A DNA stretch of 28,453 bases from Zestosphaera tikiterensis. Lineage in GTDB: Archaea > Thermoproteota > Thermoprotei_A > Sulfolobales > NBVN01. The stretch is from positions 1 to 28,453 of the forward strand of contig NBVN01000009.1 in assembly GCA_003056265.1 (NCBI GenBank), read 5' to 3'. The position numbers were made by a program, and so were the translations under genes. Every line of letters starts with the position of its first letter. Within the stretch, counting starts at the first letter, position 1. Below the pieces are notes generated by a model, which searched no databases, was not told where the DNA came from, and saw only the letters and a program-made list of their open reading frames with translations. Positions 7,068 through 24,258 of this stretch are shown in pieces.

Positions 7068-8858
7068 CTACTTTAGCATTTCACTAACTTTATTTCTGTA
7101 ATATTCCAACGCTTTAATCATATACTCTTCAGTTATTAAGCCGTTGGGGGTGGGTATTTCAAAGATTCTCTTAGGTAGTTTAAGCTCATCGAGTTTATAC
7201 CCTAACGCTAGCTTAAGTTTTAACTTTTCTTTATATATTTCAAACCCTACCCTCCTTAAGTCCTCCTCACTTAATTTAAGTCCTAGAGGTGTTAACGCTT
7301 TAACGACTGTTGCTGGTTTGTAAGCCCCTCTAGCGAATAGGCAAAGAACTAAGGAAGTTAATACCTGCCTCCAAGCTTCCTCCTCAATTATCTCATCCAC
7401 GAGTTTCTCAGGTGGCGGGTATTGCTTTCCAATGTATTTCTGATCTATTGAGTAGCCAGCGTTGTCTAAGTGACTATGTCTTAACCCAACTAAATATCCT
7501 AAATGAGCGCCTGGACCCGTATGATATCCAGGCATTTCGTTTTTGCCGTACGTTAAAGCAAATTCCAACCCGCCGTATTTTCTAGCCGCTTCCTCTGTTC
7601 CTAAAGCTAGCGTTGCGTAGAACTCGTTTGGCTGCTTGACTATATACCTAACCATCTCTATGTAGGTCTTCCAATCACCCCATTCCGGCTTAACAAGCGT
7701 TTCCTTCTCGGTTATCAACCCTCTCTTAAAAGCTTCTGTAGTCCAAGCTAGGGCTACGCCAGTGCTCATAGCGTCTAGACCGGCTACGTCGACCTCCTCT
7801 ATAAGCCTTAGGAGGCCGTCCCTATCGCTTACGCCTAACATAGTTCCTAAAGCGTATATCGGTTCGTAATCGTAACCTATATACCTAGTCGTGTAGAAAT
7901 ACTTCTCATGCGGGTACCTCTCCCTAATAACCGCTATGTGTATGCACGCTACAGGGCAGTGAGCGCAGGCTACCCTCCTAGCAAGCGAGTATTCCGCGAA
8001 AGACTCGCCACTAAGTTTCTCAGCGTCTTCAAACTTACCTGAAGTTAAGTTCCTCGTGGGTAAGGCTCCCATGACGTTCAACGGCATTACGTTATGTGGA
8101 GTTCCTAAATCATGGTATTTCTGCATCACCGGGCTTTTAGTGATTTCATCGAATATCTCTTTATACACCTTTCTATATTCAGATACGTCAGCTACGGGGA
8201 CGGATCTCTTACCCCCAATCACCACAGCCTTAAGTTTTTTAGAACCCCATACAGCACCTAACCCCAACCTGCCGAAGTGTCTGTAGGTCTCAAGAACTAC
8301 AGACGCATACCTCACTAACCTCTCACCAGCTCTGCCTATCCTCATTATAGTTCTTAAACCAGGCCAAGGCTCCCTCTCACGTAAGACCTTACCTATAGTT
8401 AAGGAGCTCCTAACACCCCATAAAGCACTAGCGTCTTTAAACTCGACCTTACCCTCATGTATCGATAGATAGACAGGTATTTCACTAGCGCCTTTGATAA
8501 CTATAGCTCCATACCCGGCCATCCTAATGGCTATAGCCGCTCTACCGCCAGCGTGGGATTCACCTAAATTACCTGTTAGAGGAGATTTAAACATAGCCAC
8601 AACTTTAGACGCTGTGGGGTAAAGACCTGTTAACAAACCTATAGCTAACACCACAACGTTATCGGGGCTTAAAGGATCTACGTCGGGTCTCAACTCCTCC
8701 TTAAGGAGTTGCGTAGCTACGCCAGTACCGCCTAAGAACTTATTGAAGAGGTCGGGCCTCGACCTAACCCAGAAAGTCTTCCTGCTTAAGTCTATGTAAA
8801 GCACTCTATAGATTAACTCATCCTTAATCGGGTCAACCATATTAAGCCACCTCCTCAA
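7068..8858 (-). CDS. aor: Aldehyde:ferredoxin oxidoreductase family tungstoenzyme
   Basis: 596 aa. It has an AOR N-terminal domain ('LYIDLS......R.....F.GG.G.A..LL'), a 'GESHAGG' block, the [4Fe-4S] motif 'CAHCPVAC', and a late 'LVLCLFA' Cys. The subtype (AOR/FOR/WOR) cannot be resolved by eye. Confidence 0.85.
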   Translation of the reverse strand: MRRWLNMVDPIKDELIYRVLYIDLSRKTFWVRSRPDLFNKFLGGTGVATQLLKEELRPDVDPLSPDNVVVLAIGLLTGLYPTASKVVAMFKSPLTGNLGESHAGGRAAIAIRMAGYGAIVIKGASEIPVYLSIHEGKVEFKDASALWGVRSSLTIGKVLREREPWPGLRTIMRIGRAGERLVRYASVVLETYRHFGRLGLGAVWGSKKLKAVVIGGKRSVPVADVSEYRKVYKEIFDEITKSPVMQKYHDLGTPHNVMPLNVMGALPTRNLTSGKFEDAEKLSGESFAEYSLARRVACAHCPVACIHIAVIRERYPHEKYFYTTRYIGYDYEPIYALGTMLGVSDRDGLLRLIEEVDVAGLDAMSTGVALAWTTEAFKRGLITEKETLVKPEWGDWKTYIEMVRYIVKQPNEFYATLALGTEEAARKYGGLEFALTYGKNEMPGYHTGPGAHLGYLVGLRHSHLDNAGYSIDQKYIGKQYPPPEKLVDEIIEEEAWRQVLTSLVLCLFARGAYKPATVVKALTPLGLKLSEEDLRRVGFEIYKEKLKLKLALGYKLDELKLPKRIFEIPTPNGLITEEYMIKALEYYRNKVSEMLK

Positions 8859-9303
8859 GAGCTAAAACTCCGTAAGGACAGAAATCAACGCAATACCCGC
8901 AATGAACGCATATAACAGGTTTATTTGCGTAGACATCCCATTGAACGGCGTTGAAGGGGCATGCCTCCCTGCAATTCCCACAGCCTATACAGAGATTCGG
9001 GTTAAGTATGACTCCACCCCCGCTTCTAGGTATTAAGGCTTTAGTAGGGCATACCTTAGCACATGGCGGGTCTTTACACGCCCTACAAACTACAACTGTA
9101 AACCCTCTCTCAACCCCACCAACGCTCCTAACGTATATCGCAGTCCTACCTAATCCCCCTTCAGGAAATCTCCTAGCGCAAGCGAACATGCATGACATAC
9201 ACCCAACGCAGAGGTCAGGATCTGTAACCACTAACCTAACGTATTTACCGACTTGCTTAGTAGATGAGGACACACGCCCCAACCTCGTTATTTTAATATT
9301 CAT
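8842..9303 (-). CDS. 4x[4Fe-4S] ferredoxin-like electron-transfer subunit
   Basis: 153 aa with four Cys clusters: 'CVGCMSCMFAC', 'CRACKDPPCAKVC', 'CIGCGNCREAC', 'CVHCGYCVDFC'. Its 3' end overlaps the AOR start by 17 nt, which implies translational coupling. Confidence 0.8.
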   Translation of the reverse strand: MNIKITRLGRVSSSTKQVGKYVRLVVTDPDLCVGCMSCMFACARRFPEGGLGRTAIYVRSVGGVERGFTVVVCRACKDPPCAKVCPTKALIPRSGGGVILNPNLCIGCGNCREACPFNAVQWDVYANKPVICVHCGYCVDFCPYGVLALEEVA

Positions 9304-9331
9304 ATGTATGCGGTTCTTTATTAACTTTACA

Positions 9332-10069
9332 TTAAAGATGTTTTATTAACGTCCTATACTTGCTGATGTACTCTCTATTGCGTTCGCTACCCCCTGGAAC
9401 GTTAACGCTTGTCCACATCTCTGGAGCAATACCCTTCTCAAGAAGTTTCTCAGCAGCTCTAACATTCACCGCATGTAATATGAAGCTATTAACCATAGTT
9501 GATATGGGGAACGTCTTCACGTAGTCGTTAATTACGTAGGTAACGTCGCCTTCAGGGATTTTATTATCTATTACAACATCGGCGACTTCGTAAAGCCTCT
9601 TACCTAAGCTATTCTCAGGCTTTAAACTCATCGAATACTTCACTGAAGTTATCGCTACGACCTTAACGCCCCTCTCCTTAAAGGAATGAGCTAACTCCAC
9701 CGGGACGGCGTTCTTCCCCGAATTACTCACCACAACTAAGACGGAGTTAGGTAGTATCGGCGTCGATTCAACTAAGCTCTTCGCATAATTAGGAAGTTTC
9801 TCAAGTATAGATGCCCTAACAGCTGAAGGAACTCCTAAAAGCGAGAGATCTATGATTGGGTAAACCCTAACTAAACCGCCGGCTCTAAAGAAGACCTCAA
9901 GAGCTACTAGCATAGAATGACCTGTGCCAAACACATACTCAAACCCGCCCTTCTCTATCGCCTCAGCAACGTAGTCAGACGCCCGCTCTAAACTCTCCTC
10001 TCCCTCCTTAATCACTTTCTCCACGTGGTTGTGTAGTATATCGAATAGCTTACTGAATGTCTCAACCAC
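9332..10069 (-). CDS. SIS (sugar isomerase) domain protein, UPF0309-like
   Basis: 245 aa. 'VFGTGHSMLVALEVFFRAGGL' and 'VVVSNSGKNAVPVE' match the SIS phosphosugar-binding fold of the UPF0309 type. It lies only 28 bp upstream of the ferredoxin gene on the same strand. Confidence 0.65.
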   Translation of the reverse strand: MVETFSKLFDILHNHVEKVIKEGEESLERASDYVAEAIEKGGFEYVFGTGHSMLVALEVFFRAGGLVRVYPIIDLSLLGVPSAVRASILEKLPNYAKSLVESTPILPNSVLVVVSNSGKNAVPVELAHSFKERGVKVVAITSVKYSMSLKPENSLGKRLYEVADVVIDNKIPEGDVTYVINDYVKTFPISTMVNSFILHAVNVRAAEKLLEKGIAPEMWTSVNVPGGSERNREYISKYRTLIKHL

Positions 10070-10132
10070 GGTTTAACACTCTCAAACATTTTATGAGCGG
10101 CGTGTTATAAAGATTTCACTAAAGCTAAAAAC

Positions 10133-11335
10133 TCATTGATAAGCTTTAAAATACCAAGGAATTAACTGAACGACTTTACCGAAGACCACATTAACCATTC
10201 TATCCGGGCTTATGGGAGGTATGTACTCACCCGCGGTTTGAACTCTCCTGCTGAGGTTAACGTTCTCACCTTTTGAATACCTAGCTATAGCGCGAATCTT
10301 ATTTAACGTAGGCTCAATCTCCTTAAGTAGCTTTCTATTAGTTAACGTTTCCTCTAAATGCTTAACCATCTCTAAAGCTTCTTCAGCGTTTCGCTCCGTT
10401 ACGGTTTCTTCGATAGGGTTTAGAAAAGATGCTTTATTAAATTCGAGAAACAGTGTGAACCAATACCTAGCGTTTTTATTGATTACATATCCTACTGAAT
10501 TCCTTAATGACGTGTTTGAATCGTAGCTTAACCCTTCATACAACATGTCAGCTACTGTATACAAAGGTATTTTAGAAGCTTCCGGCTGATTCGCTAAGTT
10601 AGCGATATACCCCGACACTAGCTTTCTTAAGTTGCCGGTTCTACCACCTATAGGTCCTAAGTGAAGTCTGTAAATACCGTTAACTATGAAGTAATCGTTA
10701 ACTGGGTAGTTATCCCATATGAGGGGTTTACGCTTTAAAACATTCGAAATAAGCTCTAAATCCTCATCACTTATGATTACCGGAGCTACCTTCATCCCGG
10801 TCCAGGCAATATCGACTTCTGGATAGACCCGCTCACCCAACTCCCTCATATAATCCTCTACGATGCCGTAGTAGTAGGTAGGGCATAAAAACATCCTCTT
10901 AGGTCTTAATTCACTAAATAGTTTATTAGTTAAGGTTGACTGAGCCTCAGCTAAAGTTTTAAACCCCTCACCTCTAAGTGCGGGTGGTATGTCATCTAGT
11001 AATAAGGCTATGGACTCAACTCCTAACTCCATAACCTTAGTGTATTTTCTTATGAGGAGGTTAACATCATCTCGTGAGGAGTAGTTTATGTCTAAACCAG
11101 GGCTTAAAGCGAACACCACCTCCACGCCGTATTTCCTACCCACGCGGATTAAGTCGGCCATCCTCGATAAATCCTCTGAAGGGTATGGAGCCCTCCACCA
11201 CTCTCTATGGTACGGATCCCACTTAGGTGCGTAGACGTAGGTGTTTAGTTGAATCCTACCCAGAAATTCAATAAGTGAGATTCGATCCATCCAATCAAAG
11301 TAGGGACCGTAGAAACCTTCAACCACACCAAACAT
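10133..11335 (-). CDS. GH84 beta-N-acetylglucosaminidase (O-GlcNAcase homologue)
   Basis: 400 aa. It is near-collinear with the O-GlcNAcase catalytic domain: 'GVVEGFYGP', 'LNTYVYAPKWDPYHR', 'ALSPGLDI', the catalytic pair in 'ALLLDDI', 'CPTYY', 'WTGMKV', 'LIWDNYPVNDY'. No signal peptide is evident. Confidence 0.85.
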   Translation of the reverse strand: MFGVVEGFYGPYFDWMDRISLIEFLGRIQLNTYVYAPKWDPYHREWWRAPYPSEDLSRMADLIRVGRKYGVEVVFALSPGLDINYSSRDDVNLLIRKYTKVMELGVESIALLLDDIPPALRGEGFKTLAEAQSTLTNKLFSELRPKRMFLCPTYYYGIVEDYMRELGERVYPEVDIAWTGMKVAPVIISDEDLELISNVLKRKPLIWDNYPVNDYFIVNGIYRLHLGPIGGRTGNLRKLVSGYIANLANQPEASKIPLYTVADMLYEGLSYDSNTSLRNSVGYVINKNARYWFTLFLEFNKASFLNPIEETVTERNAEEALEMVKHLEETLTNRKLLKEIEPTLNKIRAIARYSKGENVNLSRRVQTAGEYIPPISPDRMVNVVFGKVVQLIPWYFKAYQ

Positions 11336-11360
11336 TGTGGAATACCTCCTTAAATGGGGT

Positions 11361-12425
11361 TTAAGTCCCTACCGAACATTCCTTTACCACAGCACTTATT
11401 AAAGCATCACTTACGTAAGCATCCCCTAAAACCTTCTTCAACGCTATTAAAGCCGAAGCGCAAGACGCCCTCATAAGGCTTCCCCTAACTATTAACTCAC
11501 ACGCGCTGAACTTACGTTCTAAACACTTAATCAATAAAGACTTAACCAACTCCTTATTGCCTTCGAAAACCCCACCCACAACTGAAACCTCCGGACACTT
11601 CATGCCTAACGCTTCAGCAGCGGCAACTATCTGCTCCGAAAATAAGCAGATCTCCCCTTCGATTATCTCCCTAGCTAAGGCATCGCCCTCTTTAAAAGCG
11701 TTAAACACGTAAGGCGCTAAAGACGCTACCAATCCCTTAGGGTCTTTAGACCTATAAACCGTTGCGAGCACATCACTAACGCTTCTCGATCCCAACCTAC
11801 TTTCAAGGAGTTTATGAAGCGTGGAATGTCTGTCCCTACCCTCTAAAAACTTAAGGTATTCCCTTAAAGCGTAATTTCCTATCCTGTAAGCACTTCCTTC
11901 ATCACCGAGTAAATGCCCCCAACCACCGAACCTTACGTTCCTACCTTTATAAACCCCAAATACGCAACTACCCGTGCCTAAAACAGCTACTATACCATCG
12001 CCGAAAGCAAAAGACGCTACATGAGCTGCTAGAACATCTTCGAAAACGTGGACTTGACTTAAGTCCATATTTAGAGACTTCCCTACAAAACTCCTAACCA
12101 CTTCCTTACTTTCTTCGTTTATAACGCCCGCCATACCTACGCCTAAAGCAACGACCTCAACATCCTTTAAGTTATTGACGAGCTTCCTAACACCGTTAAC
12201 AACGTTTTTACAAGCTACTTTAACTGACGTGGCTGAAGGATTCGCAGGCTTTGAACTCAACAAACCTACTAACGACCCGCTGAGGTCTAAAGCAGCAATC
12301 TCTGTTTTTGAAGCACCAGCGTCAACACCTAAAACAACTTTCTTCAAAGCAGGTGAACACCGAAGATACTTTATCCACGGTTTTAAATATCGTTGACGTA
12401 ACATTCTTAACTTACGGTTAAGCAT
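11361..12425 (-). CDS. BadF/BadG/BcrA/BcrD-type ATPase; predicted N-acetylglucosamine (or MurNAc/GlcNAc) kinase
   Basis: Phosphate-1 motif 'VLGVDAGASKTE', then 'VLGTGS' and 'GGWGHLLGDEGSAY', typical of NAGK/BadF-type sugar kinases. The ORF-track N-terminus is probably over-extended. A TTG at 12347 (giving M-KKVVLGVDAG) has GGTG about 11 nt upstream and an ATATTTAAAA box at 12390-12381. Confidence 0.7.
   Translation of the reverse strand: MLNRKLRMLRQRYLKPWIKYLRCSPALKKVVLGVDAGASKTEIAALDLSGSLVGLLSSKPANPSATSVKVACKNVVNGVRKLVNNLKDVEVVALGVGMAGVINEESKEVVRSFVGKSLNMDLSQVHVFEDVLAAHVASFAFGDGIVAVLGTGSCVFGVYKGRNVRFGGWGHLLGDEGSAYRIGNYALREYLKFLEGRDRHSTLHKLLESRLGSRSVSDVLATVYRSKDPKGLVASLAPYVFNAFKEGDALAREIIEGEICLFSEQIVAAAEALGMKCPEVSVVGGVFEGNKELVKSLLIKCLERKFSACELIVRGSLMRASCASALIALKKVLGDAYVSDALISAVVKECSVGT
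12381..12390 (-). promoter_or_regulatory. TATA-like box for the kinase/GH84/SIS transcription unit
   Basis: ATATTTAAAA on the minus strand, about 38 nt upstream of the candidate TTG start at 12347. Confidence 0.3.
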
Positions 12426-12481
12426 ATGAGGAGGAAAGTTTTTTATCTTTACTTAATCGATTTAATGAGGTTCAACAACAT

Positions 12482-13624
12482 ATGCGTGAGGTAAAGCACG
12501 TATGCGTGGATTTTAATGAGGATAGACTACATAGAGTCGAAAGCTTACTTAACACATACGTTAATCACGCGTTCCCAGGGGCGCATTTAACGGTCGTAAG
12601 CTGCGGCGACGTAGTTTTAGATGTGTTGCTAGGGTATGCCGAGATCACACCTTTAAGAAGGGGTTTAACACGTGATATGTTGTTTGATTTAGCGTCGTTA
12701 ACTAAGGTGTTGGTGACTTCCATAATCTACGGTAAGCTTGTTGAGGAAGGTTTAGTAAGCTTAAGACAGAAAGTTTCGGAGATAGTGCCTGAATTCGTTA
12801 AAACGGTTGCTGGAAGTAGTGAAATTAAGGAGAGGATAAGGCTTTGGATGCTTTTATCCCATGCCTCAGGTCTCCCACCTTGGATGCCGTTCTTTAAACT
12901 CGCTAATTCGAGGGAGGAGGTTTTCTCAGAAGCTGTTAAGGTTTTCCCGGCAAGCACGCCTGGAGAGGTTGTAACGTATAGTGACATAAACTATATAATA
13001 CTGACTTACATAGCTGAATTAATCACCGGTGAGAGGATAGATCGTCTATTCGAGAAATACGTGGTTAAAGCCCTAAACCTAAGGAGGACTTCATACAATC
13101 CTTTAACGCGTGGATTCAGTAAAGACGAAATAGTGGCTACTGAGGTTGACGAGAGACGCGGCGGTACGTTAGTAGGCGTTGTCCACGACGAAAACGCTTA
13201 CGTAATGAATGGCGTTTCAGGCCACGCAGGTCTTTTCTCATCTGTTGAGGACTCCGCAAAGCTGATTGTTGAGCTTATTAGATCTTACCGTGGTGAAAGC
13301 GACGCTCTACTCTCGCCAGTAATAACTCAAACTTTCCTAAGGCCTTGGGCATGCGACAGCAACCTATGCTACGGTATTGGATGGCGTGTCAACAGCCACG
13401 GTAAGGTAGACTTCGATCAGTTAACTGACTTGTGGGTTTCCACATCATTTAGCCATACGGGATTCACAGGTACTTCTATATGGTTTGCGCCTGAGTTGGA
13501 TCTAGCTATACTTCTATATACGAATAGAGTACATCCAAGTAGAGCTAATGAAGCGATAGTTAAGGTAAGGCCGTTAATACATAACGCCGTATTGTCTTCG
13601 ATTAAAGGCTTAAGAGGTGTTTAG
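12482..13624 (+). CDS. Beta-lactamase-fold serine hydrolase (class C / DD-peptidase / AmiE-like family)
   Basis: 380 aa. It has the S-x-x-K motif 'ASLTK', a second motif 'YSDINY' (usually Y-S-N), and a third motif 'SHTGFTGTS'. No signal peptide is evident. Its stop lies 2 nt before the anmK start. Confidence 0.75.
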   Translation: MREVKHVCVDFNEDRLHRVESLLNTYVNHAFPGAHLTVVSCGDVVLDVLLGYAEITPLRRGLTRDMLFDLASLTKVLVTSIIYGKLVEEGLVSLRQKVSEIVPEFVKTVAGSSEIKERIRLWMLLSHASGLPPWMPFFKLANSREEVFSEAVKVFPASTPGEVVTYSDINYIILTYIAELITGERIDRLFEKYVVKALNLRRTSYNPLTRGFSKDEIVATEVDERRGGTLVGVVHDENAYVMNGVSGHAGLFSSVEDSAKLIVELIRSYRGESDALLSPVITQTFLRPWACDSNLCYGIGWRVNSHGKVDFDQLTDLWVSTSFSHTGFTGTSIWFAPELDLAILLYTNRVHPSRANEAIVKVRPLIHNAVLSSIKGLRGV

Positions 13625-13626
13625 TA

Positions 13627-14832
13627 GTGAGCACCCTTAACAAACTGTCTGAAATCCTGCTTAAGGACAGGCGAGTGATGGTTGGCGCTATGTCTGGAAC
13701 TAGCGCCGACGGCGTTGACGTGATTTTGTTGGAGCTCGACGGTCATGGACAAAACATCAGATGGAGGGAGTTAGGCAAGTACTTCAAACCATACACTAAG
13801 GAGATTAAAAACGCCGTCTTAACGGCGTCTGAGAGGGGGTCAACACGTTTGGTTTGCTCTCTTAACGTTCGTGTGGGGATGTACTTCGGCATGGCTGTAA
13901 AGGAAGCTCTAGAGTACATTGGTATGACGACCGACGAGGTTGACGCTATAGGGTCTCACGGCCAGACAATATATCATATGCCGGAACTTACTTTCGATTT
14001 AGGTATTGGGACGCGATGCACCTTACAAATAGGTCATCCGTCAGTCATAGCTGAAGTTACTGGAATAACTACCGTAGGGGATTTCAGAATTAGGGATATA
14101 GCTGCCGGCGGTCATGGAGCACCCATAATAGCTTACGTTGATTGGGCGTTACTCTCAAGTAAGGCTACAGGTAGGTTAGTTCAAAACATAGGGGGTATTT
14201 CCAACGTGACTATACTGCCGCCTAACCCAAGCTTAGACGATGTAAAGGCTTTCGATATAGGCCCTGGCAACATGTTGATAGATCAAGCCGTGAGGATGTT
14301 ATACGGCGGTAGTTTAGAATACGACCCTAATGGAGAGATAGCATTAAGTGGTAGCGTCGACGAGAAGCTACTGAACGAGCTTATGGAACACCCATTCGTT
14401 AGGAAACCCCCACCTAAAACAGCTGGCAGGAGGGAATTCGGCTCCAGATGTTTAGCGCCCATACTGAAGAAAGCCCTTGAGAGAAACCTCGCTAAAGAAG
14501 ACGTAATAGCTACTTTAGCTATGTTTACGGTGAAAAGCATAATATATAACTACGATAAATACATCCTTTCAAAATACGGGAAGATCTTCTCTGAAGCCAT
14601 CGTAGGCGGTGGAGGCGTGCGGAATAAATTCATAATGAGGGAATTGACGAAAGAGCTTAAGATGAGAGGCATTAATGTCCTCACACATGAAGACTTAGGC
14701 ATAGACTCTAAATATAAAGAAGCATTAGGTATGGCTGTTCTAGCGCATGAAACACTCAGCGGAATCCCAAACAATGTAGTCGGAGCTACAGGAGCTAAGA
14801 AATACGTGATCATGGGAGTTATCTCCCCATAA
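13627..14832 (+). CDS. anmK: Anhydro-N-acetylmuramic acid kinase family protein (AnmK / levoglucosan kinase family)
   Basis: 401 aa. It aligns by eye along its whole length with E. coli AnmK: 'GAMSGTSADGVDV', 'IGSHGQTIYH', 'LQIG', 'VGDFRIRDIAAGGHGAP', 'NIGGISN', 'FDIGPGNMLID', 'PPPKTAGRREF', 'VGGGGVRN', and the C-terminal 'GATGA'. Alternative start at ATG 13678 (MVGAMSG). Confidence 0.85.
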   Translation: MSTLNKLSEILLKDRRVMVGAMSGTSADGVDVILLELDGHGQNIRWRELGKYFKPYTKEIKNAVLTASERGSTRLVCSLNVRVGMYFGMAVKEALEYIGMTTDEVDAIGSHGQTIYHMPELTFDLGIGTRCTLQIGHPSVIAEVTGITTVGDFRIRDIAAGGHGAPIIAYVDWALLSSKATGRLVQNIGGISNVTILPPNPSLDDVKAFDIGPGNMLIDQAVRMLYGGSLEYDPNGEIALSGSVDEKLLNELMEHPFVRKPPPKTAGRREFGSRCLAPILKKALERNLAKEDVIATLAMFTVKSIIYNYDKYILSKYGKIFSEAIVGGGGVRNKFIMRELTKELKMRGINVLTHEDLGIDSKYKEALGMAVLAHETLSGIPNNVVGATGAKKYVIMGVISP

Positions 14833-15043
14833 AGTATGAAACCATCCATCCGAGGATTATCCATTTATTGTCTTCCACCCTTGAGTCCTTCAAGGCGAGA
14901 AGGAGGTCAGAACCATTTAAATCAAGTTAGAAATCACGTCCATATATATTCAGGGGAGACGTCGTTATATCTTGCTAAGCGAATATACAAGCAAGTTTAC
15001 TTTAAGACCTAACTACACTATTTAAAGAAGTTAAAGAAGTAAA

Positions 15044-15889
15044 TTAATCTTCCAGCCTAAACCACGTTTTATTTAGCCTACCTTCATCAAAGTTTAGAAT
15101 TAAGCCTGACTGAAGAGGAACTTCATCAACGCGTCCTTCACTCCTTAAGTGTAACGCTAAAGTTGATGAAACCACAGCATATACGTTCCTACCTTCATAT
15201 TCGTAAAGCTTATAGTAATCAACCTCTTTAACGTTACCTAACCTACCTTTATTCAGGTATGACGTGACTACAGCAATTAAGCTCGACGTGTTGAAAGCTA
15301 ACGCTATTGTGTTTAACGCGGTTTTCGTGAATTTAACAGCCCTTCTGTAAGCGTTAATTAAGCTTTCCCGACTTAACTCACTTATCTGCGAGTATATGTA
15401 GGTTCCAAGCACGTACGTATCTGAAACATCTAAATTATCAAACTCCCTTAAGTTTAAAGCTTTAGTGAGTTCCTCCTTTAAAGCTGTTCCATTATGTACT
15501 AACCAATAATCAAATCCTCTCCCGCTGAAGTAAAATGGGTGTGCGTTAAAAGCGTTTTTAGAACCTATCGACGCCTTCCTTGAATGAAGGATTAACACGT
15601 AATTAAAACTGTCTTTAAGTACATCCAACAGTGAGTTAACCCCAGCTACATCCTTAAAGACTGGTTTAGAGGTTTTATAGCTTGCGATGCGAGCATCGCC
15701 TCCTTTACCATCCCAGCCTACAACTACATAACCCCAGCCGTCGTCATGAGAAGCACATCCCTCTTTACCCGTTAAGGACGCTAAGTACGGATCACATTCG
15801 CTTGATTTAATGAAAGCTTCAACAACCTCGTTAGGGTTTGAGGCATTGGAAGTTACGTTTAAACCTACGATTAAAGCTATCCTACACAT
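15044..15889 (-). CDS. Stand-alone class II (Ntn) glutamine amidotransferase-like protein (YafJ/EgtC type)
   Basis: I place the start at ATG 15889 so the mature protein begins 'MCRIALIVG', as Ntn-type GATases require Cys directly after Met. The ORF-track start at 15985 adds 32 aa and overlaps the HAD gene. 'HSRKAS', 'NAHPF' and 'VHNG' motifs are intact. Confidence 0.7.
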   Translation of the reverse strand: MCRIALIVGLNVTSNASNPNEVVEAFIKSSECDPYLASLTGKEGCASHDDGWGYVVVGWDGKGGDARIASYKTSKPVFKDVAGVNSLLDVLKDSFNYVLILHSRKASIGSKNAFNAHPFYFSGRGFDYWLVHNGTALKEELTKALNLREFDNLDVSDTYVLGTYIYSQISELSRESLINAYRRAVKFTKTALNTIALAFNTSSLIAVVTSYLNKGRLGNVKEVDYYKLYEYEGRNVYAVVSSTLALHLRSEGRVDEVPLQSGLILNFDEGRLNKTWFRLED

Positions 15890-15908
15890 AACCGACACCA
15901 CCGTATAC

Positions 15909-16637
15909 CTACTTATTAAAACTTGAGCGTAACTTAAATAAAGCACTAGGTAATTGCTGCAGGTTCTCCACCACGTCGTCAGCAACTACTGAAGCGTCAA
16001 TACTTAATAACCTACGGTATGTGTCTTCATATATGGATCTCCATCTAAGGACATGTATGGCTTTAAACCCGAACGTCTTAGGGAAGTAAACGTCGAAAAC
16101 GTAACTGTCTCCAACGGTGATTAACTCACCGGAGCTATCACAGCATGAGTAGAAATTCCGACAGTTTTTAAGGCAGCCAACTCTGTCAGGACTTACTATA
16201 AGGTCGAAATACCTGTTTAAACCCGATTCCCTAATAACGCATTCCTGATACTTCATCAACCCATTCGTCGATAAAACCAGTTTATAACCTAAGTCTCTCA
16301 ACTTCTGAAGTACTTCATAAGCATTGTCAAGTATCTTAACTTCCTTACAGAAATGTTTGGAAAACCTACCCTCTATGTCTGCCTTATACCTAACTCCCAA
16401 CACCTTACTTACCTCATCAGCTATATAATCCCAATCGAAAGCCCTTGGGGTCGACATCTTAATTAAGTTTAAATGTATATTCATAGCTTGAGTAACAACG
16501 AATTCTTTAGTACGCCCGGATAACATAGCCAGCTCTTCATATGCTTTATTTATTAATGAAGATATCGGTGAAACCACCAACGTGTTGTCTAAGTCTATCA
16601 TCAACACGACTTCACTCAACTCACGCCAACACCGCAT
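15909..16637 (-). CDS. HAD-superfamily hydrolase (probable phosphatase)
   Basis: Motif I 'IDLDNTL', motif II 'LVLSTNG', motif IV 'VGDSYVFDV'. The start is more likely ATG 16601 (MIDLDNTL), since HAD motif I normally sits at the extreme N-terminus. Confidence 0.65.
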   Translation of the reverse strand: MRCWRELSEVVLMIDLDNTLVVSPISSLINKAYEELAMLSGRTKEFVVTQAMNIHLNLIKMSTPRAFDWDYIADEVSKVLGVRYKADIEGRFSKHFCKEVKILDNAYEVLQKLRDLGYKLVLSTNGLMKYQECVIRESGLNRYFDLIVSPDRVGCLKNCRNFYSCCDSSGELITVGDSYVFDVYFPKTFGFKAIHVLRWRSIYEDTYRRLLSIDASVVADDVVENLQQLPSALFKLRSSFNK

Positions 16638-16732
16638 TTTAAAACGCTTAAAGGTTTAAAACCGTGTCTACATTCTTCATAAGATGTTTAAATCACTTTA
16701 ACGTAACTTAATAATAGGTAGGTAGTTAGTAA

Positions 16733-17914
16733 ATGGGTTTAATACTTAGGCATGCCCACATAATAACGCCAACCCACGAAATACGGGACGGCTATATAGT
16801 TATTGATGAGAATGGAGACATAAGTGAGGTTGGTTGGGAACCTCTAAAGAATGAATTAGGATATGACGAACTATCCCTCGACGGTTATTTAGTTGGTCCT
16901 GGATTCATAGATACTCACATACATGGCTTTAAAGGTATAGACGTTATGAACGCGTCAGCAAGCGATATGGTTAAGTTAGCTAAGGAATTAACGACCCGCG
17001 GGGTCACGTCCTTCATACCAACTACTGTATCGGCTCCCCATGAAGACTTACTTAAGGTGTGTAGAGTCGTTAAAGAAGTTATGGGCTTCAACGACATCTA
17101 CGGAGCTAGGATTTTAGGCTTACATCTCGAGGGGCCCTACATAAACCCTGAAAAAGCTGGAGCGCACAATAAAGACTTTATACGTGACCCTAACGTAACC
17201 GAATTTAATCAATACCTCCTAGAGTCAGGGGGGTTTATAAGGGAGGTTACTATAGCTCCAGAGCTTCGAGGTAGTTTAGACTTCATAAAATACGTAAGTA
17301 GTAAGGGCGTGGTTGTTCAAGTAGGTCATACGGAAGCCTCATATGAAACCACTTTAAAAGCCATAGCTTACGGAGCTAGTAAAGCAACACATCTCTACAA
17401 CGCTATGGGGTCGATACATCATAGATCGCCTGGAGCTCCTATAGCCCTTCTATCATCTAAGGAAGTCTTCATAGAGTTGATAGCTGATTATATCCACGTA
17501 GCACCTGAAATGCTTAAGTTTACGATAGATTACGCAAGACATGATAGGGTGGTTTTAATTACGGACGCCATTTCAGCTGCGGGGTTAGGGGACGGTGATT
17601 ATCTACTGGGAGGTCTTGAAGTCGTTGTAAAGGACGGCATAGCTAGGTTGAAATCCACAGGAGCCTTAGCCGGGAGTACGTTAACTATGGATAAAGCGTT
17701 GAAGAACGTAAGGGCTTTAGGTTATAGTTTAGAACAGACCTTCACCATGCTTTCAACCACCCCAGCGAAATCCGTAGGCGCTGTATTTAAAGAGAGGGTA
17801 GGTCTTATAAAGCCCGGTTTCAAAGCAGATCTGGTAGTTTTGAATAACTCGTTAGATGTTGTTGCTACGTTCGTAAACGGCAACCTAATATATAAGGGAA
17901 TGTTGCCGGTTTAG
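16733..17914 (+). CDS. nagA: N-acetylglucosamine-6-phosphate deacetylase
   Basis: 393 aa. NagA blocks present: 'PGFIDTHIHG', 'LHLEGPYINPEKAGAH', 'VGHTEASY', 'THLYNAM', 'ELIADYIHV', 'LITDAISAAGL', 'GSTLTMD'. Confidence 0.85.
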   Translation: MGLILRHAHIITPTHEIRDGYIVIDENGDISEVGWEPLKNELGYDELSLDGYLVGPGFIDTHIHGFKGIDVMNASASDMVKLAKELTTRGVTSFIPTTVSAPHEDLLKVCRVVKEVMGFNDIYGARILGLHLEGPYINPEKAGAHNKDFIRDPNVTEFNQYLLESGGFIREVTIAPELRGSLDFIKYVSSKGVVVQVGHTEASYETTLKAIAYGASKATHLYNAMGSIHHRSPGAPIALLSSKEVFIELIADYIHVAPEMLKFTIDYARHDRVVLITDAISAAGLGDGDYLLGGLEVVVKDGIARLKSTGALAGSTLTMDKALKNVRALGYSLEQTFTMLSTTPAKSVGAVFKERVGLIKPGFKADLVVLNNSLDVVATFVNGNLIYKGMLPV

Positions 17915-17955
17915 CGGTCAAGCATTTATAACCTTCTCTAAACTACTTTAATAGC

Positions 17956-19791
17956 GTGATGATTGTGGGAGGCTTAATAGCTGTTAAATCAAAGAAGGGA
18001 ATTAACGCCATAGAGGCCTCTTTAGAGAGCCTTAAGAGAATGGAATTCCGTGGTAGGGATTCCAGCGGGTTGGCGTTCTTAATTCAAGGCAAGATAGAAG
18101 TGATTAAGGATGCCGTCCCTGTAGACATATTAAGCAAGTCTTACGACTTAAGCAGTTTTAAATCTGACGTAGTGTTAGGACATACCAGATATTCCACACA
18201 CGGTAAGGCCGATAAGGTGAACGCGCATCCACATATAGACTGTAGAGGGTCTGTAGCGGTGGTGGGTGACGGGGCTTTAATAAATTATGAGGACCTCCTG
18301 ACTAAATTGCTTAGTGAGAATCATTTAGTGAGGTCTAAATGCGATTTTGAGGTAGTGCCTCATTTAATAGAGTTTCTAACGGTTTCCGAAGGGTCTTCGT
18401 TATTAAAAGCTACTTTAGATGCGTTTAAGTTTTTAAGAGGTGTTTTCTCATTAGCTGCGTTGCTTTCCGACGGGCATATCGTAGCTTACACGAGTAAGCA
18501 ACCGCTTTACGTTGGTGAAGGTAATGAATTCACATCAATAGCTTCTACTAAGTCAGGTCTTTACGGGATAGCTGAGGTTTACACAACTCTTGAGGATGGT
18601 GAGGTATTGCTTCTAACGCCGGGAGGTGATATGAAGTTCGTTGATAGCGAGGGTCGGACAGTGTTTAAGGTTTTTAAACCGCTTGACTTAAGCCCTTCGT
18701 TGGTTAGTACGGATGGGTACCCCCACCACATGCTTAGGGAGGTTTATGAAATCCCCTACGCTATTTTAAGAACGTACTCAGCAGTGCAGAGGAAATACCT
18801 TGAGTTGGTGGGTAGGGTCTTAGCGCAAAGCGATAACGTATACGTAGTTGCTAACGGCACGAGCTTACATGCGGGTATGATATTCGCTTACTACCTCTCT
18901 GAGTTAGCTGGTAAGGTACCTATAGTCATCAGCGCTGCTGAGTTTCCATACTATTACGTAGATAAGGTGAAGGTTGGTGACGCTGTAATAGCTGTAAGTC
19001 AGTCTGGAGAGACTAGAGATGTTTTAAAATCGGCTTACGAGGCTAGACTACATGGAGCTACGGTAGTAGGTTTAACTAACAACATAAACTCAAGACTAAC
19101 TAGGTTCTCCAACATCTACTTACCTATAGGAGCTGGGCCTGAAATCTCAGTACCGGCTACTAAGACCTTCACCTCAACAGTTGTTTTACTGTATATGGTG
19201 GCGTTGGCTACGGCTTTAGCTTCTAAAACGTTAAGTTCTGAAGCCCTCGATAAAGTCTTCGAGGATTTAAGCAACCTATCGTCAACTCTACTAAGCGTTA
19301 TAGATAAGTTAAACGCCGTAGCTAAAGAGAAGGCTAAGTTAATAGCTGGTAAACGCAGTGGGTACGTAGTTTCTAGAGGTTTAACATACCCCCTAGCTTT
19401 AGAAGCAGCTTTAAAAATAAAGGAAGCTTCCTACATCCACGCCGAGGGGGTGCAGGGAGGGGAGCTTAGACACGGTCCTATATCAATACTCGATAAGGAT
19501 ATGTTCACGATATTTATAGAACCTCTTGAGGAGGACGCAGCGAGAGATATACATAAGTTAGCAAGTGAGGTTTTAGATTATGGAGCTTCAACGCTACTTA
19601 TAAGGTCTGAAGGTTTAGTGGACGTTAAGGAAGTCAACCTTGAAGTTATTGAAGTACCGAAATCCAGTAACAAACACCTAACGGTGATACCGCTCTCTCT
19701 AGCTGCGCAGTTGCTGTCTTACTGGATCGCAAACTACGTTGGATCACCTATAGACAAGCCTAGGAGGTTATTTAAAGTCGTCTCCAACTAA
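17956..19791 (+). CDS. GlmS-family protein (glutamine--fructose-6-phosphate aminotransferase-like) lacking the N-terminal catalytic cysteine
   Basis: 611 aa. The two-SIS isomerase half is intact ('SQSGETRD', 'LKIKEASYIHAEG..GGELRHGP', C-terminal 'DKPRRLFKV'). The glutaminase half retains 'RGRDSSG', 'GHTRYSTHG' and 'NAHPH'. However, the protein starts 'MMIVGG' rather than 'MCGI', and 'HNG' is replaced by 'GDG'. An in-frame TAA at 17929-17931 rules out an upstream Cys. Confidence 0.8.
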   Translation: MMIVGGLIAVKSKKGINAIEASLESLKRMEFRGRDSSGLAFLIQGKIEVIKDAVPVDILSKSYDLSSFKSDVVLGHTRYSTHGKADKVNAHPHIDCRGSVAVVGDGALINYEDLLTKLLSENHLVRSKCDFEVVPHLIEFLTVSEGSSLLKATLDAFKFLRGVFSLAALLSDGHIVAYTSKQPLYVGEGNEFTSIASTKSGLYGIAEVYTTLEDGEVLLLTPGGDMKFVDSEGRTVFKVFKPLDLSPSLVSTDGYPHHMLREVYEIPYAILRTYSAVQRKYLELVGRVLAQSDNVYVVANGTSLHAGMIFAYYLSELAGKVPIVISAAEFPYYYVDKVKVGDAVIAVSQSGETRDVLKSAYEARLHGATVVGLTNNINSRLTRFSNIYLPIGAGPEISVPATKTFTSTVVLLYMVALATALASKTLSSEALDKVFEDLSNLSSTLLSVIDKLNAVAKEKAKLIAGKRSGYVVSRGLTYPLALEAALKIKEASYIHAEGVQGGELRHGPISILDKDMFTIFIEPLEEDAARDIHKLASEVLDYGASTLLIRSEGLVDVKEVNLEVIEVPKSSNKHLTVIPLSLAAQLLSYWIANYVGSPIDKPRRLFKVVSN

Positions 19792-19839
19792 AGTTAAGGT
19801 TTTATACATAACGTTCGCTCTATCACTTTAAAAGAGGCC

Positions 19840-20484
19840 TTAATACGGCATTGCTTCACGTACCATCTCATTAACCTTAAAGAACGTATCTTCAGATATT
19901 TGGCTTAAGCCCTCACGTAAGGCGAGAGTTAACGCAGAGTTTCTAAGGGTTTTTCTAAAGACTTCATTGCTTAAGTCTAACACACCTAACGCAAGCAGCA
20001 AGGAAGTTAACGCTAAGGTATGTTTACATATGACGTACTTAGCAGTTACGAAGGTGTTGTAAAGTTTATAAAGCATTTCAGGATCGTGCCTTCTAAATAA
20101 CGTGAGGAGGGCTTTCTCGGCTTTAGACGACGTCATAACTGAATCCTCACAGGAGCACTTCATTCCGTAAGGCCCTACACGAGCTACGTAAAAACTTGGT
20201 TGAAACCCTTTTAAACCGGTGCTTGTTAAATCCATACCTCCCTTCTGAGAGGCTTTAACGAACATCATACCCCAATTACCCCTTAAAACCACAACCTCAA
20301 CTTTATCTTCGAAGGTTAGGATGACTTCAGAAGCTCCTAAAACCCTCTTACTTAACGATTCAACACCGCGTGGAAACCTTAACTCCCTACTTATAAAGTC
20401 CTTTAAATAACTCTCCAACTCCCTTAACTTACTTAACCACACCGTCGAATCGATATAGCCAACGTTACTCACAAAACCACACAT
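19840..20484 (-). CDS. Hypothetical protein with SWIM-like CxC...CxH zinc-finger signature
   Basis: 214 aa. It has 'CSC' followed 40 residues later by 'CKH'. That spacing is longer than the canonical SWIM finger, so the call is tentative. I recognised no other family. Confidence 0.4.
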   Translation of the reverse strand: MCGFVSNVGYIDSTVWLSKLRELESYLKDFISRELRFPRGVESLSKRVLGASEVILTFEDKVEVVVLRGNWGMMFVKASQKGGMDLTSTGLKGFQPSFYVARVGPYGMKCSCEDSVMTSSKAEKALLTLFRRHDPEMLYKLYNTFVTAKYVICKHTLALTSLLLALGVLDLSNEVFRKTLRNSALTLALREGLSQISEDTFFKVNEMVREAMPY

Positions 20485-20596: not shown

Positions 20597-21373
20597 TTAA
20601 CGTTGATTGAAAGCAACGACAACCGCTTTTTCATCTTTAAGGATACGTACCCTCACACCATATACGGCATATATTACTTCCTCGGTTAAAGCCTCCTCAG
20701 GCGAGCCCATAGCATATACTTTACCGTCTTTCATCACTACCACCTTATCTGAATAGCGATATGCTAAGCTAAGGTCGTGAAGCGCCATTACTACTACGAG
20801 CCTTCTGTCTCTAGCTAGCTGTTTAATTAACTCAGCAACTTCAAGCTGGTAGTAAAGGTCTAAACTTGCTGTAGGTTCATCAAGTAGAAGTATGCGTGGT
20901 TCAACCACTAAAGCCCGCGCGATTAAAGCCCTCTGGAGCTCACCCCCGCTTAACTCCGTGATCTTCTTAAAGGCTTTTTCCTCAAGGTTTACTAACTTAA
21001 GCACTTCAAAAACCTTTCTGTGATCCTTACCACCCGGCATGAAAGCTATGTATGGCTTCCTACCCGACAGTACAAAATCAAATACTGTGAAGGGGTAAAG
21101 GTGCTCAAGCCTTTGAGGTACGTAACCAAAGAGCTTAGCTATCTCCTTCCTACCCATGCTACCTAAGGATTTCCCATCGACGTATACAGACCCACTTAAC
21201 GGTTTGAAGATCCCGTCAAGCGTTTTAAGTAATGTAGTTTTCCCTGAGCCGTTAGGCCCAACAACAGACACTACTTCACCCTCACGTGCTTCAAAAGTAA
21301 CGCCCTTCAACGCTTTAAAGCTTCCGTAACTAAATTCAACGTTACCTACCTTCAGCAACACCACGCCTACCAC
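20597..21373 (-). CDS. ABC transporter ATP-binding protein (FepC/FecE/BtuD type)
   Basis: Walker A 'GPNGSGKTT', signature 'LSGGELQR', Walker B 'LLLDEPT', H-loop 'ALHDL'. It overlaps the upstream permease gene. Confidence 0.85.
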   Translation of the reverse strand: MVGVVLLKVGNVEFSYGSFKALKGVTFEAREGEVVSVVGPNGSGKTTLLKTLDGIFKPLSGSVYVDGKSLGSMGRKEIAKLFGYVPQRLEHLYPFTVFDFVLSGRKPYIAFMPGGKDHRKVFEVLKLVNLEEKAFKKITELSGGELQRALIARALVVEPRILLLDEPTASLDLYYQLEVAELIKQLARDRRLVVVMALHDLSLAYRYSDKVVVMKDGKVYAMGSPEEALTEEVIYAVYGVRVRILKDEKAVVVAFNQR

Positions 21374-22406: not shown

Positions 22407-22417
22407 TATCTACACAC

Positions 22418-23572: not shown

Positions 23573-24258
23573 GTTTCAACACCTCCAACCTTAACAGGGT
23601 ATTTAAACGTTCTTTCAATCCCCCTCCCCACCACGGCTGAGGTTCCTACGCCGGCGCAGGCCGGACATAGGTAAGTACCGTTGACTACCACGGCTTTAGT
23701 AATCATTAATAACTCCCCGCATTTACCGCATCTAACGCTTTCGTATATACCAGCCCTCTCTATAGGCTCGACCTCAACCTCCTCTATCGTAAACTCCTCA
23801 ACGGGTAGGTTAGCCATCTTATAAGCTAACTCCTCCCACACCCTACTTAATTTCTCACGATCTTCAGGAGTTCCTTCACGTCTTCGAACAACCTTATCAA
23901 ATAGCTGCAGAGCTTCACTTGAGAAATACTTAGATCTAATCCTCTCTGAATCTACGTAAACCCGCACACCCCTCCATAAACCCCTCCTAACTAAAGTTAC
24001 GGCGTTCTTCCCTAAGTCCACGTAGATCAAGCTATTATTGCCTAAGGTGCAGCCAGTCGCTACCTGAACGCCGTCAACCAAACAATTATTTACCTCAACA
24101 ATAGCTAACAACTCCTCACCGACAGTTTCCTCCTCACCCGCCCTCAACACACCCAACCTCTCCATAGCTATTTCAGACATCCTTAAACCCAAAACAAGAA
24201 ACGGACATAGATGCCCGTGAAACCACCTCGCCTTCTCAATCAAAACCTTATCAACCAT
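23569..24258 (-). CDS. FmdE/FwdE-family protein with C-terminal zinc ribbon
   Basis: 229 aa. It has the 'FHGHLCPFLVLGLRM' FmdE signature, plus 'CGKCGE...CPAC'. There is a 4-nt overlap with the SBP gene. Confidence 0.75.
   Translation of the reverse strand: MVDKVLIEKARWFHGHLCPFLVLGLRMSEIAMERLGVLRAGEEETVGEELLAIVEVNNCLVDGVQVATGCTLGNNSLIYVDLGKNAVTLVRRGLWRGVRVYVDSERIRSKYFSSEALQLFDKVVRRREGTPEDREKLSRVWEELAYKMANLPVEEFTIEEVEVEPIERAGIYESVRCGKCGELLMITKAVVVNGTYLCPACAGVGTSAVVGRGIERTFKYPVKVGGVET

Follow-up and report, generated by a model that had tools for sequence, protein, structure and literature searches.

A nine-gene amino-sugar island in the archaeon Zestosphaera tikiterensis as a candidate route for the catabolism of bacterial peptidoglycan fragments

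Zestosphaera tikiterensis, classified in the Desulfurococcaceae (Thermoproteota), is a hyperthermophilic hot-spring crenarchaeon that makes no murein. We analyzed one complete contig of this organism (28,453 bp, locus tags B7O98_09xxx), which will be referred to as the window and which stands alone in a draft genome assembled from a co-culture or metagenome; seven of the encoded proteins were assigned to it by exact sequence match. Positions 9332-19791 of the window hold an island of nine intact open reading frames (ORFs) in four transcription blocks with the order (<SIS_2 <GH84 <BadF)(Blac> AnmK>)(<Ntn <HAD)(NagA> GlmS-like>), in which Blac denotes a beta-lactamase-fold serine hydrolase (Table 1). 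An initial annotation had recognized in these genes almost the complete parts list for bacterial-type recycling of muropeptides and amino sugars. All nine genes and their layout were found again with the exception of the start of the Ntn gene, and Pfam and NCBIfam profile searches confirmed each of the nine family names. The Ntn start originally placed at 15985 was replaced by 15889 (MCRIALIV...), which was obtained with an independent gene call on the identical contig; with this start, Ntn and HAD no longer overlap. Inspection of the N-termini revealed no signal sequence in any island protein, and sugar transporter genes are absent from the island, both as first described; the adjacent ABC transporter system is of the FecCD/siderophore type. 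No regulator gene (MurR or GntR) is present within the island. The GC content is flat across it, and neither tRNA genes nor Rfam matches nor meaningful flanking or boundary repeats were found around it.

Table 1. Features of the window, with positions counted from its first nucleotide.
Feature	Position	Strand	Evidence or remark
thiM-thiE-thiL-like genes (thiamine salvage)	11-2423	+	left contig end
M24 (Xaa-Pro/creatinase-type) peptidase	4424-5515		adjoins the DUF438-hemerythrin-PAS_10 gene
DUF438-hemerythrin-PAS_10 protein, possible O2/NO/iron sensor	5527-6870	-	
AFOR_N/AFOR_C tungsten-type aldehyde:ferredoxin oxidoreductase and 153-aa 4Fe-4S protein	7068-9303	-	family match
UPF0309/SIS_2 phosphosugar enzyme, NagS-like, 245 aa	9332..10069	-	Pfam SIS_2 2.4e-38
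GH84 beta-N-acetylglucosaminidase, cytoplasmic	10133..11335	-	Pfam NAGidase (PF07555) 4e-84, 283 bits
BadF/BcrAD-family sugar kinase (GlcNAc/MurNAc/hexose kinase type)	11361..12425	-	Pfam BcrAD_BadFG 2e-28
Putative divergent promoter region, BadF/Blac	12426..12481	.	A/T-rich; TATA-like boxes ~25 nt 5' of each ATG
Blac, YfeW(PBP4B)/AmiE-type serine hydrolase, cytoplasmic	12482..13624	+	Pfam Beta-lactamase 1e-47
AnmK, 1,6-anhydro-sugar kinase	13627..14832	+	Pfam AnmK (PF03702) 3e-94, 316 bits, cutoff 24
Ntn, stand-alone class-II (Cys1) glutamine-amidotransferase-like amidohydrolase, 281 aa	15044..15889	-	GATase_6 1.6e-7, GATase_4 1.6e-4
HAD-superfamily hydrolase, generic phosphatase type	15909..16637	-	DxDxT motif; Pfam Hydrolase/HAD_2 ~1e-9 (HAD 1.8e-9)
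Putative divergent promoter region, HAD/NagA	16638..16732	.	A/T-rich; several TTTAAA boxes
NagA, GlcNAc-6-P deacetylase	16733..17914	+	TIGR00221 320 bits, cutoff 226
GlmS paralogue with dead glutaminase site	17956..19791	+	TIGR01135 436 bits, cutoff 418
214-aa protein, no family match	19840-20484	-	starts MCGFV; CxC...CxH (SWIM-zinc-finger-like) motif
FecCD-type ABC transporter (ATPase, permease, Peripla_BP_2), then FmdE-domain protein	20597-24258	-	family match
pdxS-pdxT (pyridoxal phosphate synthase)	24442-26072	+	near right contig end

The kinase AnmK and the serine hydrolase Blac form the core of the island. AnmK passed the NCBIfam equivalog NF007148 with 414 bits (cutoff 387), while it scored under the cutoffs of the other 13 AnmK (PRK09585) sub-models. 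Alignment with phmmer to P. aeruginosa AnmK (8BRE) demonstrated conservation of S12, D14, T97, R129, N168, D182, D191 and E326, the catalytic and substrate residues listed for that enzyme (bioRxiv 10.64898/2026.03.13.711553). Its phmmer scores were 199 bits for fungal levoglucosan kinase (LGK) and 196 bits for Shewanella AnmK; by identity, it shares 46% with Bacillota AnmKs, 37-38% with proteobacterial and characterised AnmKs and 32% with LGK. Overall identity and gene context favour anhMurNAc, the 1,6-anhydro form of N-acetylmuramic acid, as the substrate. Archaeal homologues with 52-63% identity are numerous and carry the labels Sulfolobales, Desulfurococcales, Thermoproteota or Crenarchaeota, and in a neighbour-joining tree the AnmKs of the Thermoproteota constitute one clade (bootstrap 100/100) nested among sequences of Bacillota, Abditibacteria and Methanomethylicota.

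Blac scored 191 bits with the PBP4B/YfeW model (NF002968), followed by only 39 bits for the next beta-lactamase-fold model of NCBIfam. It aligns over the full length with E. coli YfeW (29% identity, E 3e-47), sharing the motifs S-x-T-K (SxxK), Y-S-D, H-T-G, VHDE.A and GVSGHAGLFS. By its fold it can also be likened to AmiE, which is a PF00144-fold protein (PMC10653849). In analogy to these enzymes we propose that Blac acts as an (anh)MurNAc-L-Ala amidase or as a D-peptidase on stem peptides; unlike its bacterial counterparts, the secreted AmiE and the periplasmic YfeW, it is predicted to be cytoplasmic. The archaeal Blac clade parallels that of AnmK and additionally takes in Caldivirga and Brockarchaeota, with bacterial sequences appearing only at 40% identity or less.

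The GH84 protein begins directly at its catalytic domain and lacks a signal peptide. In the PDB it matched 5DIY best (3.8e-59) and next the O-GlcNAcases of humans and bacteria. The catalytic pair D114-D115 (LLLDDI) aligns with the DD of human O-GlcNAcase (OGA), BtGH84 and 5DIY, and the WDN...ND motifs are aligned as well. With NF041654, the NCBIfam model of the 732-aa secreted type, it reached 215 bits at a cutoff of 1000. The TIM barrel, the Asp-Asp pair and the missing signal peptide are thus shared with 5DIY-like bacterial O-GlcNAcase homologues and with human OGA; unlike in OGA systems, the gene is located in an amino-sugar/muropeptide cluster and not paired with an O-GlcNAc transferase. 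By analogy we propose that GH84 takes the place of NagZ, removing N-acetylglucosamine (GlcNAc) from GlcNAc-(anh)MurNAc or from other GlcNAc conjugates. In a further archaeal locus (L020; L-numbers label the homologous loci compared) GH84 is again grouped with SIS_2, NagA and Blac.

The BadF kinase matched the NCBIfam model NagK_SO3507 below its cutoff (4e-28). Among structures, it is equally similar to the broad-specificity hexokinase of Sulfolobus tokodaii (2E2N, 8e-27) and to a MurNAc/GlcNAc kinase (8ZO3, 1.4e-26). The orthologue in locus L010, a contig from a genome of the sister genus, has 331 aa, so that the window kinase may actually begin at an internal site. In bacteria, loci L017 and L022 likewise have a BadF kinase beside AnmK.

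What had been described as a SIS phosphosugar protein does belong to the SIS family; it is of the UPF0309/NagS type instead of being a MurQ homologue. It passed PRK02947 of NCBIfam (260 bits, cutoff 135) and its PDB matches were 3CVJ (3e-38) and SCO4393/NagS (7.5e-37). A diverged MurQ was considered and rejected, as no NCBIfam MurQ model matched and BLASTP against E. coli MurQ yielded E 0.1 over 16 residues. MurQ eliminates D-lactate from C3 of MurNAc-6-P via a 2,3-unsaturated intermediate, which is then rehydrated. NagS (SCO4393), reported in 2025 and described by its authors as MurQ-related, dehydrates GlcNAc-6-P to the 2,3-unsaturated 6-P-chromogen I (PMC12680351). Nine NagS residues, H53, S54, R64, S91, E94, S119, S121, D179 and N228, are all identical in the alignment with the island protein, the catalytic and substrate-binding residues and mutagenesis data being those of the same study (PMC12680351). 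By analogy, we propose the SIS protein to be either a MurNAc-6-P lactyl-ether eliminase, that is, a functional substitute of MurQ, or a GlcNAc-6-P dehydratase. The former assignment follows from the elimination of water from GlcNAc-6-P by NagS, which ends in a 2,3-unsaturated product of the kind known from the MurQ reaction; since UPF0309 also occurs in an AnmK-free cluster with a phosphotransferase system (PTS) and NagA, the etherase role is one that we infer. The likeness to NagS (PDB 9EOL) extends over the whole length, all reported residues and the association with NagA. NagS orthologues were found only in Streptomycetaceae, where they belong to a toxicity/signalling branch in hosts that also possess a true MurQ (PMC12680351), unlike the SIS protein studied here, which is located in a catabolic island with AnmK and for which no accompanying MurQ was found.

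In loci L002, L008, L010, L020 and L021, too, the NagA gene forms a cluster with Blac, AnmK or SIS_2. For the protein encoded downstream of it, the initial annotation as a GlmS-like isomerase/deaminase holds with respect to family and an intact isomerase domain, and the deaminase reading gains support because the glutaminase has been lost. In the alignment with E. coli GlmS, Cys1 is replaced by Gly or absent and Asn98 by Asp, whereas the isomerase domain retains S347, Q348, S349, T352, K485, E488, H504 and K603. As a stop codon is located 33 nt upstream, a longer N-terminus with an in-frame Cys start is impossible, and without the Cys1 nucleophile the protein cannot be a glutamine-dependent synthase. 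The same loss of Cys1 and Asn98 was observed in the GlmS-like proteins of L010, L008 and Infirmifilum. The protein is probably a GlcN-6-P deaminase/isomerase that forms Fru-6-P and NH3, and as such the functional counterpart of NagB. It resembles GlmD of Thermococcus and the Shewanella-type NagB-II SO3506 in its GlmS-related SIS isomerase domain and its amino-sugar catabolic context next to NagA, and it gave partial NCBIfam matches to NF046059 and NF041128; unlike GlmD and NagB-II, in which the N-terminal domain is absent, it retains a full-length, nucleophile-less glutaminase domain and still scores as GlmS.

The two remaining genes are conserved only in L010, with 73% identity for Ntn and 74% for HAD. 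The family assignment of the Ntn amidohydrolase was correct: the start MCRIAL leaves, after Met removal, an N-terminal Cys that is the typical class-II nucleophile. Nevertheless, no role in a pathway could be assigned to it. NCBIfam returned weak matches to EgtC, GlmS and PurF, the PDB search gave no useful match, and an AlphaFold2 model calculated without an alignment was unusable (pLDDT 39); that it cleaves stem peptides at a gamma-glutamyl or amide bond is a speculation. The suggested resemblance of the HAD protein to the MurNAc-6-P phosphatase MupP came down to generic HAD-IA similarity and found no specific support in NCBIfam or the PDB. Its best NCBIfam model was TIGR02253 (59 bits, cutoff 170), with 44 bits for a phosphoglycolate-phosphatase-like model, the PDB matches were uncharacterised HADs, and no named MupP model was matched in a comparison that comprised models but no MupP reference sequence.

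Both divergent intergenic regions presumably function as promoters, judging from their sequence. The boxes located ~25 nt from both ATGs between BadF and Blac are compatible with leaderless transcripts, and a block AATCGATTTAA(T/C)GAGGTT is common to this region of the window and of L010. A search for an operator shared by the two divergent regions yielded only generic TATA-like boxes and this one block conserved in L010.

Comparison with other archaea showed that the neighbourhood is conserved and that the genes are not grouped by chance. L010 contains the same nine genes in the same order with 71-86% amino-acid identity, and with the flanking ferredoxin and 214-aa genes included, synteny extends over proteins of 71-88% identity. 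Sub-modules recur in several archaeal lineages: NagA-Blac-AnmK in L002; NagA and SIS_2 followed by Blac and AnmK, with a GlmS-like gene 1.3 kb off, in L008; and Blac and an Opp/Dpp-type ABC transporter of five genes in convergent orientation to AnmK, together with GHL10 and GH3 or GH36, in L013/14/15, contigs of Thermoproteota metagenome-assembled genomes (MAGs) that carry ribosomal protein L35Ae. In L016 (Methanomethylicota), GH3-Blac is divergent from AnmK, and the GH3 protein is 38% identical to the bacterial enzyme in the NagZ position. In total, Blac and AnmK are neighbours in no fewer than six archaeal lineages, either in tandem (window, L002, L008, L010), convergent (L013-15) or divergent (L016), and linkage in three orientations across lineages points to selection for joint function. 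In the Sulfolobales MAG GCA_033581075.1, AnmK stands alone, but NagA-Blac-x-SIS_2-M20 peptidase-GH84 is found elsewhere on the same 1.4-Mb contig. In L013/14/15 we also observed a conserved 392-aa protein without Pfam match encoded divergently from AnmK, and GHL10 (PF02638) flanking Blac/Opp/AnmK (8600-9900 and 18300-19800); both are candidates for further muropeptide processing.

A different arrangement was found in L021 (Infirmifilum uzonense, an archaeon in culture, CP009961, 1-10738), where a complete PTS (EI, HPr and mannose-type EIIA/B/C/D) is encoded together with UPF0309, NagA and a Cys-less GlmS paralogue. Apparently an archaeal PTS regulon for amino sugars, this locus has its core module in common with the window; it may represent an archaeal MurP/MurQ-like arrangement or reflect a role of UPF0309 in general amino-sugar-6-P metabolism. 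The cluster additionally contains genes for an alkaline-ceramidase-like amidase and a GFO/IDH oxidoreductase. Homologues of MurQ, NagB (PF01182) and Amidase_3 were detected neither in the window nor in ~323 kb of archaeal flanks, which leaves UPF0309 and the Cys-less GlmS as positional counterparts.

Of the bacterial AnmKs examined, the nearest (45% identity) is encoded in L017, a Firmicutes MAG, in the order GntR-BadF kinase-MurQ-GH3-AnmK-NagA-NagB; the MurQ of this locus is 53% identical to E. coli MurQ. At 7450-9984 of L017, MurQ and the NagZ-type GH3 read as a single 844-aa ORF, of which the deposited call starts only at the GH3 part; the read-through reflects either a fusion of MurQ and NagZ or an artefact of the assembly or of a stop codon. 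The nearest organism-named bacterial Blac (36% identity) belongs to a Blac-BadF-AnmK tandem in L022, a Halanaerobiales MAG. Hence the closest bacterial relatives of AnmK and Blac lie inside MurNAc/GlcNAc operons and not in clades with demonstrated functions outside amino-sugar metabolism. The yfeW gene follows murQ-murP in E. coli, and B. subtilis possesses a murQ-murR-murP-amiE-nagZ-namZ operon in which AmiE is the MurNAc-L-Ala amidase (PMC8054146, PMC5061867, PMC10653849). Like the Bacillota MurNAc/anhMurNAc operons and those of E. coli and B. subtilis, the island would deglycosylate, remove the peptide, phosphorylate the 1,6-anhydro sugar and then proceed from GlcNAc-6-P via GlcN-6-P to Fru-6-P, with identities to the bacterial counterparts of 43-46% for AnmK, 41% for NagA, 29-30% for the BadF kinase and 29-36% for the YfeW/AmiE-type hydrolase. 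Unlike them, it carries GH84 in place of the GH3 enzyme NagZ, a UPF0309/NagS-like protein in place of MurQ and a Cys-less GlmS in place of NagB, and it is devoid of MurR/GntR, AmpG, MurP or any other transporter. As the archaeal host makes no murein, the process would be scavenging rather than recycling. With the Gram-negative recycling pathway (AmpG-NagZ-AmpD-LdcA-AnmK-MurQ-Mpl) the window shares only AnmK; AmpG, GH3 NagZ, AmpD (Amidase_2), LdcA and Mpl families were not found in the 28-kb window.

The deep archaeal clades of AnmK and Blac, together with flat GC and the lack of flanking repeats, argue for an old, domesticated acquisition. The core of Blac, BadF and AnmK was probably gained long ago from Bacillota-like bacteria and probably then joined to an archaeal amino-sugar-6-P module consisting of UPF0309, NagA and the Cys-less GlmS. 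The island would thus be a composite, in which this archaeal core is fed by the bacterial-derived front end and by GH84.

Taken together, we consider it somewhat probable that the island constitutes a cytoplasmic catabolic route for bacterial peptidoglycan fragments and for free or conjugated GlcNAc. Seven of the nine island proteins combine a family assignment with intact active sites, and every enzymatic step of the pathway is deduced from homology and gene context. GlcNAc-(1,6-anhydro)MurNAc-peptides would be imported via a transporter encoded elsewhere, an Opp/Dpp-type ABC transporter adjoining Blac-AnmK in related archaea. GlcNAc, which bacteria remove with a GH3 enzyme (NagZ), would be taken off by GH84, a position held by GH3 in the Methanomethylicota relative, and the YfeW/AmiE-like serine hydrolase would strip or trim the stem peptide. 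AnmK would then convert anhMurNAc, ATP and H2O to MurNAc-6-P, and the BadF kinase may phosphorylate GlcNAc and possibly MurNAc. The UPF0309/NagS-type SIS enzyme would eliminate the C3 D-lactyl ether with rehydration of the product to GlcNAc-6-P, as in MurQ chemistry, followed by the predicted conversion to GlcN-6-P by NagA and to Fru-6-P and NH3 by the Cys-less GlmS paralogue. The parts list of the initial annotation thus survives as a co-conserved set, though without MupP, a MurQ homologue or a role for Ntn, and among the three explanations offered at that time, scavenging of peptidoglycan debris is the one best supported by comparative genomics. A bolder version, to be regarded as tentative and short of probable, is that murein-less hyperthermophilic Thermoproteota feed on the anhydromuropeptides that bacterial neighbours shed or release, with UPF0309 as a second, non-homologous MurNAc-6-P etherase, the full-length, dead-glutaminase GlmS as the GlcN-6-P deaminase and GH84 as a GlcNAc-anhMurNAc glycosidase.

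Several observations weigh against peptidoglycan-fragment catabolism. No transporter is linked to the island in Z. tikiterensis, and the proposed pathway leaves Ntn and HAD unexplained. To our knowledge, cleavage of GlcNAc-beta-1,4-(anh)MurNAc has not been reported for GH84 enzymes. The UPF0309 protein is without BLAST-detectable similarity to MurQ, and the sole characterised member of its family, NagS, is a GlcNAc-6-P dehydratase. For Blac, the score with the PBP4B model lies below the equivalog cutoff of 385, and the physiological substrate of YfeW itself is unsettled. The anhMurNAc-binding residues T97 and R129 are conserved in fungal LGK too; because these and other residues are common to AnmK and LGK, sequence cannot fix the substrate of the kinase, and a search for residues that tell the two apart ended with the published anhMurNAc contacts proving non-discriminating. 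Several Sulfolobales MAGs show no local clustering of AnmK, which sits there among housekeeping genes (PolB, dCTP deaminase, CDP-archaeol synthase). Finally, the Infirmifilum cluster of UPF0309, PTS, NagA and GlmS-like genes has no AnmK within 10 kb, and the position of UPF0309 beside a PTS without AnmK implies that it may serve general amino-sugar metabolism and not ether cleavage.

This last finding leads to an alternative that is unlikely but deserves serious attention, namely general GlcNAc salvage by GH84, the BadF kinase, UPF0309, NagA and the Cys-less GlmS, five genes that would act on glycans made by the organism itself (chitobiose cores of N-glycans, O-GlcNAc-type modifications) or on environmental chitin oligomers, with AnmK and Blac as unrelated or accessory neighbours. 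Besides the Infirmifilum locus, which carries three of these genes next to a PTS in the absence of AnmK and Blac, it draws on the likeness of GH84 to cytoplasmic O-GlcNAcase-type enzymes (5DIY, human OGA), on a BadF kinase with equal similarity to MurK and to the Sulfolobus hexokinase of broad specificity and on the unlinked AnmK of several Sulfolobales MAGs. Salvage nevertheless does not account for the adjacency of Blac and AnmK in so many archaeal lineages, repeatedly beside NagA, SIS_2, GH3 or an Opp transporter, nor for the occurrence of their closest bacterial relatives in MurQ/NagZ/AnmK operons. Moreover, we know of no process in archaea that would be a source of 1,6-anhydro amino sugars.

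Rather improbable, in our judgement, is a shift in the specificity of AnmK and Blac toward an amino sugar of another 1,6-anhydro or C3-substituted kind, for instance 1,6-anhydro-GlcNAc, an abiotic levoglucosan-type sugar or an ether- or ester-linked hexosamine. Such a shift would be in line with the near-equal phmmer scores for LGK and Shewanella AnmK, with anhMurNAc-contact residues that fail to separate these two kinases, with the identity of just ~37% between the archaeal clade and characterised AnmKs and with the lack of a detected MurQ in the window and the archaeal loci; a eukaryotic AnmK derived from horizontal gene transfer has been reported to show weakened anhMurNAc activity, for which a specificity shift was suggested (bioRxiv 10.64898/2026.03.13.711553). 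It is at odds, however, with an AnmK that passes the NCBIfam equivalog cutoff and is nearer to the Bacillota AnmKs of MurQ/NagZ/NagA operons than to LGK, and with a partner hydrolase from the MurNAc-operon-linked YfeW/AmiE subfamily. We also know of no hot-spring source of such sugars comparable to bacterial muropeptides.

That the island is an artefact or relic, either a mis-binned bacterial contig or a recent, unintegrated mobile element, might be suspected from the draft co-culture or metagenome assembly and the stand-alone 28-kb contig but is effectively refuted, since the closest relatives of each gene belong to archaeal clades (Sulfolobales, Desulfurococcaceae, Thermoproteota), homologous clusters reside on archaeal contigs of 0.5-1.6 Mb with PolB, CDP-archaeol synthase, ribosomal protein L35Ae and aEF-2, GC is flat without tRNA genes, Rfam matches or flanking repeats, the TATA boxes are of the archaeal type and accompanied by the promoter block conserved in L010, and all ORFs are intact with conserved catalytic residues; the host is thus an archaeon, as had been assumed.

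In a full-text search that covered the subscription literature in part, no paper on archaeal AnmK, MurQ-type chemistry or peptidoglycan-fragment catabolism was found, so that a prior mention is possible, and amino sugars find no mention in the Zestomicrobium genome paper. NCBI labels the archaeal homologues automatically as AnmK, serine hydrolase and SIS-domain protein and the archaeal GH84 as 'hypothetical protein'. While the logic of bacterial muropeptide catabolism is known, the archaeal host, the proposed scavenging role and the three putative non-orthologous replacements are new. Archaea were shown in 2025 to make peptidoglycan hydrolases that kill bacteria, with the fate of the products not being addressed (PMC12352652). 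If the peptidoglycan-fragment route proposed here is correct, archaea would go beyond the attack on bacterial walls and possess a dedicated, conserved intracellular pathway consuming 1,6-anhydro-muropeptides, which would tie them to the way in which a major bacterial necromass pool is turned over in geothermal systems. It would define a cross-domain route of necromass recycling at 80 degC or above and provide functions for three poorly understood enzyme types. For these, testable predictions are now available: UPF0309, with NagS as its single characterised member, the Cys-less GlmS, automatically annotated as GlmS, and the archaeal GH84. Z. tikiterensis is available in culture, which makes its physiology directly testable, and the island may also supply thermostable AnmK, amidase and etherase-type enzymes for the preparation and analysis of muropeptides.

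On both sides the island is bordered by further genes (Table 1). The FecCD/FmdE system is probably devoted to metal or chelate uptake without any tie to the amino-sugar island, and the whole FecCD/Peripla_BP_2/FmdE ABC system was ruled out as a muropeptide importer, as it is of the siderophore/metal type. The genes for the aldehyde:ferredoxin oxidoreductase and the 4Fe-4S protein follow SIS_2 downstream on the same strand after a gap of only 28 nt and may be co-transcribed with BadF-GH84-SIS_2; the ferredoxin gene adjoins SIS_2 in L010 too (88% identity), where it is followed by a same-strand gene that is cut by the contig end. A connection of the oxidoreductase to aldehydes from amino-sugar breakdown is speculative. 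The gene for the 214-aa protein, which directly follows the GlmS-like gene in L010 as well (71% identity), possibly encodes a regulator or accessory protein of the island.

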